Origin: Escherichia phage UGJNEcP1
Sequence record: OV754623
Direction: 5' to 3' (one strand)
DNA length: 64,000 bases
A model generated the notes under the pieces. That model worked only from the letters and a program-made list of their open reading frames with translations, made no database searches and had not been told where the DNA came from. Of this stretch, positions 5,596 to 63,642 are shown piece by piece. The position numbers and the translations under genes are program-made. Within the stretch, counting starts at the first letter, position 1. Each line of letters opens with the position of its first letter.

Positions 5596-6076
5596 TAAAA
5601 AGGTAATGATTCCTAAATTAGGGCTCAAACATTATAATCTTTTAAAGGACGTTAAAGGCCCTGATGAAAACATGAAAATCTTAGCTGATTCTATTTGTAA
5701 AAATATGAGTCCCGCAGATTTTGATTTTGCATGTCTACACATATTGGAATTTAATAACAAACTTAAGTCTGAAGTTGAAAAAGATGGATTCACTTATAAA
5801 CTAGATGACGTCTATGTATGCCAACGAACAGAATTCCAATTCCAAGGTAATACTTTTTATTTTAGACCCCCAGGCAAATTTGAACAATTCGCTACAATCA
5901 GTGAAATGCTATCAAATTGCTTAATAAAAGTTAATGACGAAGAGAAAGAAATTTCTTTCCTTGAGATGCCTGCTTTTGTAATCAAATGGGCAGAAGACCT
6001 TTCGACAACTATTGCTATTCCAGGCCCTAATGGTCCTATTAAGGGTATAGCAGAAATTATTGGATTGCTTGAATGA
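5543..6076 (+). CDS. 28: baseplate hub distal subunit gp28
   Basis: 177 aa as T4 gp28; overlaps the 3' end of gene 27. Confidence 0.75.
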
Positions 6077-18447: not shown

Positions 18448-18780
18448 TCACTTATAAAGACACGGAATAGCTTTATAGTGGCATGTTACGAATTTCTGTT
18501 TAATTTCTTTAGGTTGTTTAAGTCCCAAAGCCACAAATGGATGTGGAACATTTCGAATTTGTCCAACCGGTAGTGGAGTCAAATCACCGACTTCAACAAA
18601 ACCTTCAGGAACATCAGGACCTACAGAATGAACTACGCATAGTTCAGGAACTTCACCTTGAACACGTTTACCAATCACAAGTCCTGATTCGGTAACTTCT
18701 TCATCACCTGCTTGAGCGGGTTCAGAAACCAGAATAACATATTCACCAACAGCACGAATTGGGAGTTGTACTTCAGACAT
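18448..18780 (-). CDS. 31: co-chaperonin gp31 (GroES analogue for capsid folding)
   Basis: 110 aa; near-identical to T4 gp31 as recalled; MotA-box middle promoter upstream. Confidence 0.9.
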
Positions 18781-58387: not shown

Positions 58388-58405
58388 AAGCTCCCGAAGG
58401 AGCTT
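58388..58405 (-). terminator. hairpin AAGCUCC-UUCG-GGAGCUU at the 3' end of gene 39
   Basis: Overlaps the last codons and stop of gene 39; U-rich sequence downstream. Confidence 0.4.
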
Positions 58406-60221
58406 AGGACATCCATTCTTTACGAAGTTCTGAATCATCACCCATCAACATTTCAAAGAGTTCTTTCCAATTTTCAGGAAGTTTAACTACGTCGTACACA
58501 GGGTTCTGAATCATTTCACGATATTCTGACTTTTCAAGGGAGCCTAATCCCTTGATGTATCTAATACTATGCTTAGGCAGTGTATCTTTAACTTCTTCAT
58601 ACTCAGCTACAGTATAAAACCATTTTTGAGTTTTGCCAATTTGTGCAATAATTACAGGCGTTTTAACAAAACGAATACGTCCTTGTTCAAACAATTCAGG
58701 CCAATTACTAAAGAAAGCAAGCAAAGCCGGATAGATACTTCCAAGACCGTCGTGATCTGCATCGGTCATAATTGCAATATTACGATAGTTCGTATTCTCT
58801 GCCTTTTCACCAAGAATAAGACCTGTGATAGCACAGATATCGAAGAGCTCTTTGTTCTTCATCATATCGGCATATGACATACCCCAGCTATTCATCACCT
58901 TACCACGTAATGGGAATCCACCGTGTAGTTCACGGTCACGAACATCAATGAGATAACCAATTGCCGAATCACCTTCTGTTAAAAACAATGTTGTATCTGC
59001 ATCTTTACCGCATTGGTTAGCTTTAATATGCTTATGAACCTTAGCTTTAGTTGCCTTTTTAGCTGCTTTAGTTTCTGCAGCCTTTTCTGCCGCCAATTTA
59101 CGAGCTAATGCTGCTTCAACAATAGGCATAATCAAGGCTTCGTTTTTAAGAAGTGCCTGAGCAATTTTCTTAGCATCTAATTGGATATGATTACGAATAT
59201 CACCGTACGTTGACGTTAAACGCTCTTTAGTCTGAGAATCAAAACGCATGTTGCTCATGTCTCTAATAAACATCAACATTGTGAGACATTCTTTAACACG
59301 AGCTTTAGTGACTTCAATACCCTTATATTTCTTTTTAATACCTGGCAAAAGATGTTCACAGATATCATCCATTACACATTCAACATGATGACCACCATTT
59401 TTAGTATGGATGTTATTCACATAAGTTAAATGACGGAAGCCATCTGGTGATGTTGTGAATGCTATAGAAACTTTATCATTTTCTTGAATGATGTTATCTT
59501 CACCAAATTGTTTAGCAAATCGTTTAAAATTACCATCAACCTTTTTACCATTAAATGTGAACTTGATATCAGGATAAACGACTGCCAATGTTTGAAGTCG
59601 GTCTAAAGTAATATCTAAATAAATTTGAGATAAATTGTGCTCTTCAAACGAAGAGAAATCAGGAGTGAAGATTACTTTAGTGCCTTTACCTTTAGATTTC
59701 TTAGAAGACCATGATTTGTTTTCCATTCCATTTGAACAGTTAACAGTGATTTCATTTTCGCCATCTGACGTAATGCCTGTAAACAACGTAGAGAAGATAT
59801 TAGTTAAACTACTCCCGACGCCATTCATACCACCAGTCTTGCGTTCAGAGTCATCACCAAAGTTACCACCGGCCTTTGGAATAGTCCAGGCTGCTACAGG
59901 CCCAGGAATTTGTTCACCTGTTTGGTCGGTAACTAAACCTTGAGGAATACCACGTCCGTTATCTTCCACCGAAACTTGATTATTTTTAATTTGCACATCA
60001 ATTTTATTTGCAAACTTAAATGATGTACGAATAGCTTCATCAACCGAGTTGTCAATAATCTCATCGATTAATTTAACCAGACCAGGAACATATTCAACTT
60101 GTTGATATTTACCAAACAAAAAACGCTCATGTGCTTCTTTAGCTGAAGAACCAATATACATACCACTGCGTTTCTTAATATGTTCTACATCCGACAATAC
60201 CTTAATTTCATTTTTAATCAT
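58404..60221 (-). CDS. 39: DNA topoisomerase II large subunit gp39 (unsplit 39+60 form)
   Basis: 605 aa; GHKL ATPase N-terminus; one continuous ORF covering what T4 splits into genes 39 and 60. Confidence 0.9.
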   Translation of the reverse strand: MIKNEIKVLSDVEHIKKRSGMYIGSSAKEAHERFLFGKYQQVEYVPGLVKLIDEIIDNSVDEAIRTSFKFANKIDVQIKNNQVSVEDNGRGIPQGLVTDQTGEQIPGPVAAWTIPKAGGNFGDDSERKTGGMNGVGSSLTNIFSTLFTGITSDGENEITVNCSNGMENKSWSSKKSKGKGTKVIFTPDFSSFEEHNLSQIYLDITLDRLQTLAVVYPDIKFTFNGKKVDGNFKRFAKQFGEDNIIQENDKVSIAFTTSPDGFRHLTYVNNIHTKNGGHHVECVMDDICEHLLPGIKKKYKGIEVTKARVKECLTMLMFIRDMSNMRFDSQTKERLTSTYGDIRNHIQLDAKKIAQALLKNEALIMPIVEAALARKLAAEKAAETKAAKKATKAKVHKHIKANQCGKDADTTLFLTEGDSAIGYLIDVRDRELHGGFPLRGKVMNSWGMSYADMMKNKELFDICAITGLILGEKAENTNYRNIAIMTDADHDGLGSIYPALLAFFSNWPELFEQGRIRFVKTPVIIAQIGKTQKWFYTVAEYEEVKDTLPKHSIRYIKGLGSLEKSEYREMIQNPVYDVVKLPENWKELFEMLMGDDSELRKEWMS

Positions 60222-60270: not shown

Positions 60271-60286
60271 AAGGGCCGAAGCCCTT
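60271..60286 (-). terminator. intrinsic terminator (AAGGGC-UUCG-GCCCUU plus U-run)
   Basis: Hairpin followed by TTTTTGC on the minus strand, between gene 39 and the ORF at 60285..60728. Confidence 0.55.
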
Positions 60287-60728
60287 ATTTAAATTTAATT
60301 TTCTGAAGTGCATCAATTGCAGCTAAACGCCCTTGTTCACTTTTAACTGTAATGACCACATCGCCTGATACGATCACCGAACCATCAACAAATTCTATAG
60401 AGCCTTTTTTGAAATCGACAGCTGTATCTGGTTCCGGAACTTCTTCAAAGAATTTAAATTCTGCACCATAAATCAGAATATCACCTTGCATACTAATGAT
60501 TGTACGTCTAGGTCCATCGGTTTCAGCGGCAATCATTGAAACACCATAACCAATCATCTCTTCTACAATAAAATCTCTTGATAATAAAACTGTATGCAGA
60601 GTAGTGTTAAGACGTTTACCAGTTGTATTAAGAATTCTCAAGAAATTATCTTCTTGACCTTTGATAATACGATATTTCTTACCAACTTCAAAACCTTTAA
60701 AACCTTTAAAAGCCGTATTAAAAGCCAT
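60285..60728 (-). CDS. hypothetical protein
   Basis: ORF track; terminator hairpin at its 3' end. Confidence 0.5.
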   Translation of the reverse strand: MAFNTAFKGFKGFEVGKKYRIIKGQEDNFLRILNTTGKRLNTTLHTVLLSRDFIVEEMIGYGVSMIAAETDGPRRTIISMQGDILIYGAEFKFFEEVPEPDTAVDFKKGSIEFVDGSVIVSGDVVITVKSEQGRLAAIDALQKIKFK

Positions 60729-60730
60729 AA

Positions 60731-60910
60731 TTAACCCTTCTTAAGTAAGTCGTAAAAACCACCGTTCACATGTTTAGGAGCAGAAACCCGACGAGTAGAC
60801 AGACGATGACATTCAGGGCAAACATCGTTTTCTCGTTCAGAAATCCTTTTAATTTTTTCATATTCATGACCACAATCTTCAGATTGACATTTATAGTCGT
60901 ATAACGGCAT
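60731..60910 (-). CDS. FmdB-family zinc-ribbon protein, 59 aa
   Basis: Hand-translated ([20 protein letters not shown]...VCPECH...RRVSAP); two CxxC pairs and the FmdB-like MP.Y.Y.C..CGH..E pattern; TAATG overlap with the upstream ORF. Confidence 0.5.
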   Translation of the reverse strand: MPLYDYKCQSEDCGHEYEKIKRISERENDVCPECHRLSTRRVSAPKHVNGGFYDLLKKG

Positions 60911-61323
60911 TATTGTTCCTTAAAATGTGCTTTCAACATTTGATACAAAGACCATGCCTGGTCGTTATTTTCGATAGTAATCGTCATCACAGGAAATTCA
61001 GACAATTCGTCAAGTTCATCAGAATCTTGCTCTTCAGACGCTTGATATGGATTTCCAACTTCGTCAAAGAACTCTGCTTCATTCGTGGAGAGCCAGATAA
61101 AGTTTTCATCAAGGATATCACCGCCTGTTGCGTATCCAACCGTGCCAGTAGATGTTAAAATTTTAGTAGGACGTCCGAGATGGTCAACATCTAATACTTT
61201 AAATGGTTCCATGCCAAGACGTCGTGCATAAATCCCATTATCAGTGTGGTCTTTAATAAACTCTTCTTGGGCACGTTTATCTATAAATTGATACCATGAG
61301 TTAACGCGGAATTTATTAGCCAT
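60910..61323 (-). CDS. hypothetical protein
   Basis: ORF 60910..61341 starts on TTG in the track; trimmed to the ATG at Met 7, which overlaps the upstream stop (TAATG). Confidence 0.5.
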
Positions 61324-61550
61324 TAGTAAGTTTCCTTCCAATAAGTTGTACCATTTTCAGTGATTTCACGGAAGATACCATAGATAGGCATTTCATCGCC
61401 GAGTTTTTCGTAAACGTAAACCACTTCGGTGTAGCATAAAAATTCAGTCCAGTTTTTCTGTACAACAACTAAATCAGGATTAAACAGAACATCTTCAAAC
61501 TCATCGATGTTTGAATCGGTAGTTACGTTTTTAATGATTTGACGTTTCAT
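61323..61550 (-). CDS. hypothetical protein
   Basis: ORF 61323..61595 trimmed to Met 16 (GAGGAG SD); the track start falls inside the predicted promoter. Confidence 0.45.
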
Positions 61551-61578
61551 AATATTCTCCTCTTGTTTTGATAGGTCT

Positions 61579-61608
61579 ATAGTATCATAGACCATAGTTG
61601 TTGTACAT
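61579..61608 (-). promoter_or_regulatory. possible early-type promoter (weak -35, TACTAT -10)
   Basis: Conserved leader TATAGACCTATCAAAACAAGAGGAG; -35 deviates from GTTTAC. Confidence 0.3.
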
Positions 61609-62132
61609 CATTTTAGCAAAATAAAATCAACTTGTTCTGCCAATGAACGTCTGAACATTAATTGACAACTTCCAAGGATGAAATCAGGTGCTTCATAGAC
61701 CGCGATGTAGTATCCTTTAGCTTTCAAGAGTTCAACATCCACCTGGTCATCAAACCATGCATAGACCGCGTCAACACTTTCAAATCCAAAATAGAACTCT
61801 TGAGCCCAATCTTCGCTCAATTCAAATGTGTGCTCAATTCTATGGTATCTTAAGGTATTTTGTTCAAGGAGTTTGTCTTCATTTACTGTAGGACGATTAG
61901 GGACATTATAGTTGTCGCCATGATGGTAGAAGTTACCTGAGAGTATTCCATGCTTATCAAGGAACTCCCATGTTTCTTCAGAGTTGTCGGTGCCCGACCA
62001 ACCGTATGGCGAACGAGGTTCTTTATTCCAAGAGGTTTCCCAAATTCTGACGGCTTTACCGTCTTCAATAGCAATTCCTGGTAATGATTCACGTTGAGTA
62101 CAAAAACTACGTTCTACTCGGTAAACTAACAT
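61608..62132 (-). CDS. hypothetical protein
   Basis: 174-aa ORF; early-type promoter and GAGGAG SD upstream. Confidence 0.5.
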   Translation of the reverse strand: MLVYRVERSFCTQRESLPGIAIEDGKAVRIWETSWNKEPRSPYGWSGTDNSEETWEFLDKHGILSGNFYHHGDNYNVPNRPTVNEDKLLEQNTLRYHRIEHTFELSEDWAQEFYFGFESVDAVYAWFDDQVDVELLKAKGYYIAVYEAPDFILGSCQLMFRRSLAEQVDFILLK

Positions 62133-62191: not shown

Positions 62192-62611
62192 TTATGCAAA
62201 AGATGCTGGACAATATTTTTTGATTTGGAACTCAGGAACTACCATGAACTGACCAGCAAAAACAATGTTATAAAGCTTGACGCCATCTTCAACCCATTGG
62301 TCACTGATGAACCCAGCGACTTGATTCGTTGTCCACGGTGTTCCGTCTGTCGCAGAGGCAATGGTGAACTTGTGGTCTTTTACAACTAAAACCGATCTGC
62401 ACAGTTTCCATTTGAACGCTTTTTCTTCCGGTTCAATGAATTGGCTTTTAACGTAACCAATGTTACCATCGGCGTCACGAACTTTAATTTCGTTACGTCC
62501 AAAAACAGGATCACTCACATAAAGAACTTCAACCAACTTCCCGGCAACTTTAGAGCGAGAAGCATCCGATACGTGTACATAATCACCAATAGAGAGATTT
62601 GCAATATTCAT
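62192..62611 (-). CDS. paralogue A of a tandem family (KOW-like N-terminus, DQWVEDG C-terminal motif)
   Basis: C-terminus GFISDQWVEDGVKLYNIVFAGQF shared with the next two genes; N-terminus SIGDYVHVSDASRSKVAGKLVEV shared with paralogue B. Confidence 0.55.
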   Translation of the reverse strand: MNIANLSIGDYVHVSDASRSKVAGKLVEVLYVSDPVFGRNEIKVRDADGNIGYVKSQFIEPEEKAFKWKLCRSVLVVKDHKFTIASATDGTPWTTNQVAGFISDQWVEDGVKLYNIVFAGQFMVVPEFQIKKYCPASFA

Positions 62612-62620
62612 AATAATTCC

Positions 62621-63085
62621 TTAAGCTTTACGAGGAGACACATAGCGAGTGATTTCAGATTCTTCAACAACTCGGAAGTCACCTAAGAATACAATATTGT
62701 ATAGCTTTTTACCATCTTCAACCCATTGGTCGCTGATGAAGCCGCACATAGTATCAGTTTTGCTTGGATAACCGTATTCGTCGATGTAATCAAATTCTTT
62801 ATCGGTTATAAATTCAACGCCTTTGCAAAGGGCCCATTTGAACTGTGTAGTAGGCTCAACGATATCGCTTGAAGCAAATTGGACTCGTATATGTTTTTCC
62901 AGGAATTTAGGACTTACGTAAGCATACTGGGCATCTTGTCCGCCAAAACTCGGGATGATTCGAACTTTAACTTCTTTAACACGTCCCATGCCGTTAGTAC
63001 GAAGCCCTGCTACTTCAACCAGACGACCTGCAGCTTTAGAACGAGAAGCAGGAGATACACGAAGGATTTCACCAATAGTAATCAT
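62621..63085 (-). CDS. paralogue B of the tandem family
   Basis: ORF 62621..63148 trimmed to Met 22 (track start lies in the promoter); GFISDQWVEDGKKLYNIVFLGDF. Confidence 0.55.
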   Translation of the reverse strand: MITIGEILRVSPASRSKAAGRLVEVAGLRTNGMGRVKEVKVRIIPSFGGQDAQYAYVSPKFLEKHIRVQFASSDIVEPTTQFKWALCKGVEFITDKEFDYIDEYGYPSKTDTMCGFISDQWVEDGKKLYNIVFLGDFRVVEESEITRYVSPRKA

Positions 63086-63115
63086 AATTTCTCTCTCTTT
63101 GTTTAAATTGAATTC

Positions 63116-63145
63116 ACTATACTCCATCCATCCTTGGATGTACAA
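63116..63145 (-). promoter_or_regulatory. early-type promoter variant (TTGTAC-N18-TATAGT)
   Basis: Upstream of paralogue B (start 63085); spacer CCAAGGATGG. Confidence 0.45.
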
Positions 63146-63147
63146 CA

Positions 63148-63642
63148 TTAATTAAGGATATTAACCACAGCACTACGTGGAACAACACTAAAATCACCAG
63201 CATGAACAACGTTAATAAGTTCAACACCATCTTCAATCCACTGGTCAGTTACCCATCCACTCACTGGACCTGCGAACGGACGTCGAATTGAAACGGCTTT
63301 ACACAACAAATCAGTAGGCTCAATAGGCTTAATCAGAGTACCGTACATACAAGCGATGTCCATATCAAAGTGGAGACCATCTTTAACAGGTGCTTCTTCA
63401 ATCAACAGTTCAAAGTCTGTGCTTGGAAGGGCGGTAGTAGAAATTGTACCGTATGAATTTTTAATTTCTAAGAATAACCAAGGGCCTTCAGCTTGTTTGA
63501 TGAAGTTAACAATAGTGAAACTATTACCTTGAGTGGCACCTAAAATTTCACAAAACTTTTCATAAGCTCGCACTGAAGCACCGTACCAATTGATTTGTTT
63601 TTCGTCTTTCAGGATGTAAGTAGCCGTAGTATTGATATTCAT
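63148..63642 (-). CDS. paralogue C of the tandem family (C-terminal domain only shared)
   Basis: C-terminus GWVTDQWIEDGVELINVVHAGDF; own promoter and AGGAAA SD. Confidence 0.55.
   Translation of the reverse strand: MNINTTATYILKDEKQINWYGASVRAYEKFCEILGATQGNSFTIVNFIKQAEGPWLFLEIKNSYGTISTTALPSTDFELLIEEAPVKDGLHFDMDIACMYGTLIKPIEPTDLLCKAVSIRRPFAGPVSGWVTDQWIEDGVELINVVHAGDFSVVPRSAVVNILN

Follow-up and report, generated by a model that had tools for sequence, protein, structure and literature searches.

A 59-residue zinc-ribbon gene of an RB69-like Escherichia phage is T-even gene 39.2 (NwgI), whose product is a probable early modulator of GroEL

Whether a 59-codon open reading frame (ORF) of an Escherichia phage is a genuine gene, and what its small zinc-ribbon product does in the infected cell, are the questions raised by this locus. 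The window analysed here is a stretch of 64,000 nucleotides from Escherichia phage UGJNEcP1 (sequence record OV754623), for which a first-pass annotation had reported an unlisted FmdB-type zinc-ribbon gene at positions 60731–60910. The ORF listing and translation place 59 codons and a TAA stop at this interval on the minus strand, and the plus-strand reading of the same interval is interrupted by stops. The interval was right, but the strand had not been given; the protein fragments quoted in that annotation are those of the minus-strand translation. The gene is "unlisted" only in the sense that it falls under the 60-residue cut-off of the listing, whereas most related GenBank records annotate it. 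The features discussed below are collected in Table 1.

Table 1 Positions of gene 39.2, its neighbours and gene 31 in the window.
Feature	Position	Strand	Description and basis
Gene 31	18448..18780	-	GroES-like co-chaperonin, 110 aa; phmmer comparison with the T4 gp31 sequence, PHROG 931
GC-rich hairpin with UUCG tetraloop and T-rich tract	58388-58405	-	Directly after gene 39; likely terminator or mRNA-stabilising element
Gene 39	58404..60221	-	Fused 60+39 topoisomerase II large subunit, 605 aa; Pfam DNA_gyraseB/HATPase_c/Toprim, annotation in relatives
Terminator-like GC hairpin with UUCG loop and T-run	60271..60286	-	Between the 147-aa ORF and gene 39; consensus scan only
147-aa ORF	60285..60728	-	RB69ORF005c homolog; ORF list, PHROG, RB69/JS09 comparison
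Gene 39.2 (NwgI) CDS	60731..60910	-	59 aa, 6.9 kDa zinc-ribbon protein; ORF list, profiles, identity, dN/dS, AF2
goF	60910..61323	-	mRNA metabolism modulator homolog, 137 aa from ATG; PHROG 622/13003/2980 matches, JS09/RB69 annotation
Shine-Dalgarno AAGGA	60917..60921	-	6 nt 5' of the 39.2 ATG, within the last goF codons; read from sequence
cef	61323-61595	-	Pfam T4_Cef, E 5.5e-34
motB.2	61608-62132	-	Window gene order

The ORF is tightly embedded between its neighbours. Its ATG start codon overlaps the TAA stop of goF by one base (TAATG), in the minus-strand context ...TTTTAAGGAACAATAATGCCG..., and its 3' end reads GGT TAA TT ATG, which leaves a 2-nt gap before the ATG of the 147-residue ORF. 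Stop/start coupling had been claimed for both sides; it holds at the upstream junction, while the downstream junction is close-packed with no overlap. A consensus scan for a dedicated 39.2 promoter returned 19 sigma-70-like matches as compared with 19.0 in shuffled sequences, and because this equals the shuffle expectation no promoter is claimed. Terminator-like sites in the 6-kb region numbered 9, as compared with 3.6 ± 2.1 in shuffles. The hairpin that follows the 147-residue ORF is likely the 3' end or a stabiliser of a cef-goF-39.2-ORF transcript, and both hairpins in Table 1 are, judging from their sequences, likely terminators or mRNA-stabilising elements.

The 2.4 kb around the ORF are 99.5% identical to Escherichia phage UGJNEcP2 and show 96–98% identity to Mosigvirus (RB69-like Tevenvirinae) genomes such as those of JS09 and p000v, and the window genome is a Mosigvirus, that is, an RB69/JS09-like T-even phage. 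On the minus strand the genes are arranged in the order of MotB-like paralogs, motB.2, cef, goF, 39.2, the 147-residue ORF and gene 39. The order motB/cef/goF/39.2/x/39 is common to T4, RB69 and JS09, where x is the slot directly downstream of 39.2, which varies among T-even phages: it holds the 147-residue ORF in the window phage and RB69, and 39.1 in T4. Gene 39 is the downstream synteny anchor of 39.2 in RB69, JS09, T4, Moon, ECD7 and Miller.

The encoded protein has 100% amino acid identity to RB69 gp39.2 (NP_861696; locus L003 2973–3152), and the two genes differ by only two synonymous nucleotide substitutions. The JS09 record labels its ortholog "gp39.2 ... similar to NP_861696 [RB69]". 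Identity to the 58-residue gp39.2 of T4 GT7 (locus L008 1501–1677) is 81% in alignment A1, with 11 substitutions and one additional C-terminal residue in the window protein, and 82.5% over residues 1–57 by tblastn. The window protein thus resembles gp39.2 of T4 and RB69 in length (58–59 residues), in its position between goF and gene 39, and in its placement in the early-gene cluster. Farther orthologs in alignment A1 are those of Moon (57%), Krischvirus ECD7 (45%) and Pseudotevenvirus Miller (41%), all of which still lie upstream of gene 39; the Muldoon homolog (41%) has rearranged surroundings, in which the gene order differs. The length of the window protein lies within the 57–60 residues of the 39.2 orthologous group. 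As every property of the group that could be tested was present, the ORF is, on the evidence of sequence and synteny, the Mosigvirus ortholog of T-even gene 39.2 (NwgI), a gene already known, named and experimentally studied in T4.

Several paralogs were noticed in the same region. Both ORFs that flank 39.2 match PHROG 622 (60285–60728, E 3e-19; 60910–61323, E 2e-38) as well as goF-labelled PHROGs, which suggests that the 147-residue ORF and goF are distant goF paralogs on either side of 39.2; their pairwise BLASTP comparison was not significant (E 0.089). Farther upstream, three tandem minus-strand ORFs (62192–62611, 62621–63148 and 63148–63642, of 139, 175 and 164 residues, respectively) share the C-terminal motif GF(I/V)(S/T)DQW(V/I)EDG(V/K)(K/E)L(Y/I)N(I/V)V and are the counterparts of the MotB-like and motB.1 genes in RB69/JS09; they form a local paralog array.

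The length of the ORF says little by itself about whether it is a gene, because many spurious ORFs of 30–60 residues occur in the AT-rich window (ORF listing). Together with the fact that 39.2 is shorter than the usual gene-calling length cut-offs and that a frameshift shortens the T4 RefSeq copy to 45 residues, this abundance would be in keeping with a chance ORF or a decaying remnant without function. Profile searches and selection analysis speak decisively against that reading. The protein scored 49.3 bits (E 5e-13) against Pfam PF09723 Zn_ribbon_8, whose gathering score is 34.4, and 48.0 bits against NCBIfam TIGR02605 "FmdB family zinc ribbon protein", whose cut-off is 31.3; it also matched PHROG 1076 (E 1.9e-12). 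The FmdB-family membership proposed in the first-pass annotation is therefore borne out by two profiles above their curated cut-offs, and the Pfam comparison that it had named as a check gave a clear match. Another of its proposed checks, conservation in related phages, was answered by tblastn, which found homologs in 955 phage records, 912 of them with at least 80% coverage.

Among 21 distinct T-even orthologous nucleotide sequences, the pairwise Nei-Gojobori dN/dS had a median of 0.043 and a maximum of 0.17 (138 pairs with dS > 0.05), and the variable sites at codon positions 1, 2 and 3 numbered 11, 8 and 40, respectively. Gene 39.2 is under strong purifying selection. Its Shine-Dalgarno sequence is conserved and it is packed tightly against the neighbouring genes, and the 58-residue frame is intact in T4 GT7. 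With these results, the proposal that the 59-residue ORF is a genuine small gene stands, and the selection analysis rules out a chance ORF or non-functional remnant, to which we assign a negligible probability.

The shortened T4 copy has a simple origin. In T4 RefSeq (NC_000866), 39.2 is annotated as 45 residues at 5702–5839 (locus L002 2703–2840), ending ...RLVSAS*, because the RefSeq sequence carries one extra base near codon 45: it reads GCTTCCTAAG where T4 GT7 reads GCTCCTAAG. The full 58-residue frame is encoded in T4 GT7 at the locus cited above, but it carries no annotation there. The segment that follows also differs between the two records. In T4 GT7 (locus L008 1680–1940), 39.2 is followed by an 86-residue ORF whose start, MKYINRSIAALVLAVSLIGC, resembles a lipoprotein signal with a lipobox. 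The 39.1 gene of T4 RefSeq (locus L002 2399–2596) has 65 residues and lacks this N-terminus, and the RefSeq sequence or annotation of the 39.1 segment therefore looks unreliable.

The protein starts with MPLYDYKC and carries four cysteines in two knuckles, C8-x4-C13 and C31-x2-C34. Two CxxC pairs had been claimed from the sequence; this description is correct for the second pair, while the first is C-x4-C. The four cysteines are the predicted zinc ligands, and the protein would bind zinc on this basis. M1, P2, Y4, Y6, C8, C31, C34 and G51 are invariant in alignment A1. In alignment A2, which comprises 60 phage homologs gathered by an alignment-query search (a single-query word-indexed search gave 8 close relatives), Y4, C8 and C34 are invariant, and M1, P2, Y6, C13 and C31 are conserved in at least 90% of the sequences. 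The MP.Y.Y and SAP motifs described earlier were thus recovered as a conserved MPxYxYxC start and a conserved xAP in both alignments. The first knuckle is C-x2-C in 30 of the 60 homologs, C-x4-C in 12 (the T4/RB69 type and the jumbo phages) and C-x2-H in 5 (Krischvirus and Muldoon). Between the knuckles, 24 of the 60 have the motif (E)KIxKI(S/A)ER(E/D), and the tail motif xAP(K/R)x(V/I)(N/H)GG(F/Y)YD is present in 25, including all T-even-type sequences. The C-terminal tail of the window protein is SAPKHVNGGFYDLLKKG.

Compared with the FmdB family as a whole, the window protein shares the MPxYxYxC start, the two predicted metal-binding knuckles and the xAP after the ribbon, but lacks the Ser-rich C-terminal extension. 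Its first knuckle is C-x4-C instead of the C-x2-C of the family, and that of the Krischvirus and Muldoon orthologs is C-x2-H. The inter-knuckle (E)KIxKISERE motif appears to be specific to phages, since it was found in none of the 8 bacterial FmdB sequences examined. The T-even tail aligns with "F-K-G-S-G-F-Y-x-T-D-Y" in FmdB proteins from bacterial genomes, so that the G-G-F-Y of the window protein is equivalent to the bacterial "KGSGFYxTDY". Many bacterial matches with the MPLYDYKC start are longer proteins of 110–135 residues that end in RPWMISH and belong to NCBIfam NF053663 (loci L094–L109); these make up a separate family of FmdB-ribbon fusions, present in gammaproteobacteria and cyanobacteria.

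An AF2 model built on alignment A2 had a mean pLDDT of 80, with values of approximately 87 for residues 1–40 and 59–69 for the tail, which is probably flexible because of these low values. The model contains four short strands (residues 3–8, 16–20, 28–30 and 37–40). A sequence search of PDB chains gave no relative of gp39.2, the best and marginal match being the zinc ribbon of ribosomal bL31 (E 0.32). In a Foldseek search of the PDB with the model, no match was significant (best E 0.33, RMSDs up to 9 Å); the matches below significance were zinc-binding ribbon modules of MCM, RNAP subunit P/Rpb12, aRF1 and Sir2. Such matches are compatible with a generic zinc ribbon and uninformative on function. 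The zinc-ribbon fold class of gp39.2 is weakly supported by structure and strongly by profile.

Experimental information on the function comes from T4, in which the 39.2 product is NwgI, the subject of the Ang and Georgopoulos (2012, Genetics 190:989) study as summarised in PMC5153855 and PMC4396842. According to the summary in PMC5153855, one author of which also took part in the 2012 study, the genetics and biochemistry of T4 39.2 suggest that GroEL is shifted toward an "open" conformation, to which both host and phage co-chaperones can bind, and T4 deleted for 39.2 cannot grow at all in specific groEL mutant hosts. The account in PMC4396842 gives the same result for 39.2 and GroEL and places the gene among the T4 accessory genes that fine-tune host proteins. 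In both summaries T4 39.2 is reported to suppress groEL/groES mutant phenotypes (PMC5153855, PMC4396842).

RNA-seq places the transcript of T4 39.2 in the early class (Class_Tx). The protein was not detected in a T4 proteome (Class_P = NA), for which the reference for this very small protein was the frameshifted 45-residue annotation; this annotation may explain the lack of detection. In the original genetic work, the RB69 gene is said to have been the clone first isolated, the RB43 and RB49 homologs reportedly behave alike, and overproduction of 39.2 is reportedly lethal to the host. Our literature search found no text documenting the 39.2 experiments with RB69, RB43 or RB49. If RB69 39.2 was indeed the clone first isolated, the window protein is the very sequence that was selected. 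Additional targets of gp39.2 are possible because its overproduction is reportedly lethal.

We infer from sequence identity that the RB69-type protein of the window phage has the same GroEL role, and we consider it quite probable that this gp39.2 is an early zinc-ribbon modulator of GroEL that favours the state in which the chaperonin accepts a co-chaperonin. In the proposed mechanism, gp39.2 would be translated early, from its own AAGGA ribosome-binding site on a polycistronic cef-goF-39.2 mRNA, and would fold as a four-stranded zinc ribbon (C8, C13, C31 and C34) with a flexible conserved tail (SAPKHVNGGFYD...). It would then act on host GroEL, presumably through a surface that touches the chaperonin, and move the open/closed equilibrium toward the open state. 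Open GroEL would accept either host GroES or the phage co-chaperonin gp31, and the GroEL/gp31-dependent folding of phage proteins such as gp23 would be secured on hosts with an ill-matched GroEL allele. The major capsid protein gp23 is the best known GroEL/gp31 client. No gp39.2–GroEL complex was found among solved structures.

The co-chaperonin gene assumed in this mechanism is present in the window. Its product matched a T4 gp31 sequence (phmmer, E 2.6e-70) and PHROG 931 "head morphogenesis" (E 5e-50), and there is no physical linkage between the gene and 39.2. Other phage-encoded factors, gp31 of T4 and CocO of RB49, likewise fit the host GroEL to the requirements of the phage (PMC5649160). 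These are heptameric lids of the GroES fold that replace GroES, whereas gp39.2 is unrelated to them, being a zinc ribbon of monomer size, and is reported to bias the conformation of GroEL and not to cap it.

Two other functions have to be weighed against modulation of GroEL. The family name, used by Pfam, NCBIfam and PHROGs alike, suggests an "FmdB-like transcriptional regulator" that controls early transcription by binding to DNA or RNA polymerase, and gene 39.2 does share its early cluster with MotB-like "modifier of transcription" genes. The RNAP zinc ribbons (Rpb12/subunit P) and RbpA are also among the non-significant Foldseek matches (E 0.45–2). No fold match reached significance, however, and neither a helix-turn-helix nor any other DNA-binding module is present in the 59 residues. 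No functional study of the family came up in a literature search for FmdB and zinc ribbon, and the FmdB name was inherited from an untested "putative regulatory protein" of a formamidase operon. To our knowledge, the only FmdB-family member that has been studied is T4 gp39.2, which acts on GroEL. "Regulatory" in this name is a propagated family label, not a function. As the direct genetics on the T4 ortholog, in the summaries concerned, also lead to GroEL (PMC5153855, PMC4396842), we regard a role in transcription as very unlikely.

Alternatively, gp39.2 might be a general zinc-ribbon adaptor with a different or additional main host target, whose effect on GroEL would be indirect, for instance through client titration or induction of the heat-shock response. 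The case for GroEL rests on genetics and on "biochemical studies" that the summary in PMC5153855 leaves unspecified. Zn_ribbon_8 genes are widespread in phages in unrelated contexts, such as beside the portal gene of a 253-kb contig and in 80 IMG/VR loci with no chaperonin. The reported toxicity of overproduction would also fit an additional target. On the other hand, the homolog is conserved beside GroES in jumbo phages, and the reported effect is allele-specific, being seen in specific groEL mutant hosts, and was read by the authors as a shift in GroEL conformation (summary in PMC5153855). An adaptor acting mainly elsewhere is thus improbable, if slightly less so than a transcriptional regulator, and a modulator of GroEL remains the preferred reading of gp39.2.

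The jumbo-phage arrangement deserves a closer description. A Zn_ribbon_8 homolog is encoded 0–20 nt upstream of a Cpn10/GroES gene in both Yersinia phage fHe-Yen9-04 (69 residues) and Salmonella phage 7t3 (67 residues). For fHe-Yen9-04, the zinc-ribbon protein matched Pfam Zn_ribbon_8 with an E-value of 2.1e-10 and the adjoining product matched Pfam Cpn10 with an E-value of 9.7e-17. Cronobacter phage GAP32 and two metagenomic contigs have the pair as well. The Zn_ribbon_8 gene is directly upstream of GroES in 5/5 examined members of the GAP32/fHe-Yen9-04/7t3 type, at a distance of 0–21 nt in annotated records (pair coordinates: L012 2501–3017, L013 2501–2994, L110 2501–3019, L112 2501–2996 and L113 2501–2990), within a shared block of DNA pol B ... 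phosphoesterase - Zn ribbon - Cpn10. Like gp39.2, the jumbo-phage proteins have a C-x4-C knuckle and the KIVKI(S/A)(D/E)RE motif, with 53% identity over residues 1–34/35. They differ in their tail (...GDKGSNLYFRGNWFxxTGxY), in their length of 66–69 residues and in being coupled to Cpn10, not to goF and gene 39. As all belong to one syntenic lineage, the pair counts as one evolutionary observation, and it gives a hint that the chaperonin connection of this branch of the family extends beyond the T-even phages.

A family-wide genomic linkage to chaperonins was considered and is unsupported. When every ORF of 94 phage loci was compared with GroES/GroEL by phmmer, Cpn10 turned up in the two jumbo phages only, and the 80 IMG/VR loci contained no chaperonin neighbour of a 39.2 homolog. 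GroES was located within 6 kb of an FmdB-family gene in 1/16 bacterial loci, which came from a single-protein scan biased to proteins starting MPLYDYKC. The linkage is unsupported because of these counts (0/80 and 1/16), the homolog that adjoins the portal gene in the 253-kb phage contig, and the single jumbo-phage lineage.

A broader proposal can still be formulated, namely that the FmdB/Zn_ribbon_8 branch of enterobacterial phages consists of general chaperonin modulators. This branch would be marked by a C-x4-C or C-x2-C ribbon with KIxKIxERE, and would comprise T-even gp39.2, the homologs of Vequintavirinae and Ackermannviridae, as well as the jumbo-phage gene that shares an operon with GroES. 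The flexible Gly-Gly-aromatic tail (GGFYDLL) would dock on GroEL much as the mobile loop of GroES or gp31 (GGIVL / SGLIIG) does, and perhaps bacterial FmdB proteins would behave likewise. If this were true, thousands of bacterial "FmdB family regulatory proteins" with the KGSGFYxTDY tail would be chaperonin-associated proteins, not transcription regulators. We consider this extension speculative and unlikely.

As for significance, gene 39.2 in the window adds little by itself, being a known T-even accessory gene below the 60-residue display cut-off, and the jumbo-phage pair of zinc ribbon and GroES is a small independent hint that the chaperonin link may reach beyond the T-even phages. The practical value of the analysis lies in curation: hundreds of phage records, including RefSeq T4, RB69 and JS09, label 39.2 as "FmdB-like transcriptional regulator" or "hypothetical protein", while the sole functional evidence found for it is modulation of GroEL. 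Two further labels are evident annotation errors. The T2 ortholog (AP018813, 4978–5148) is annotated as "kilA: anti-repressor protein", and the homolog of phage 7t3 (locus L013 2501–2704) as "type I antifreeze protein".
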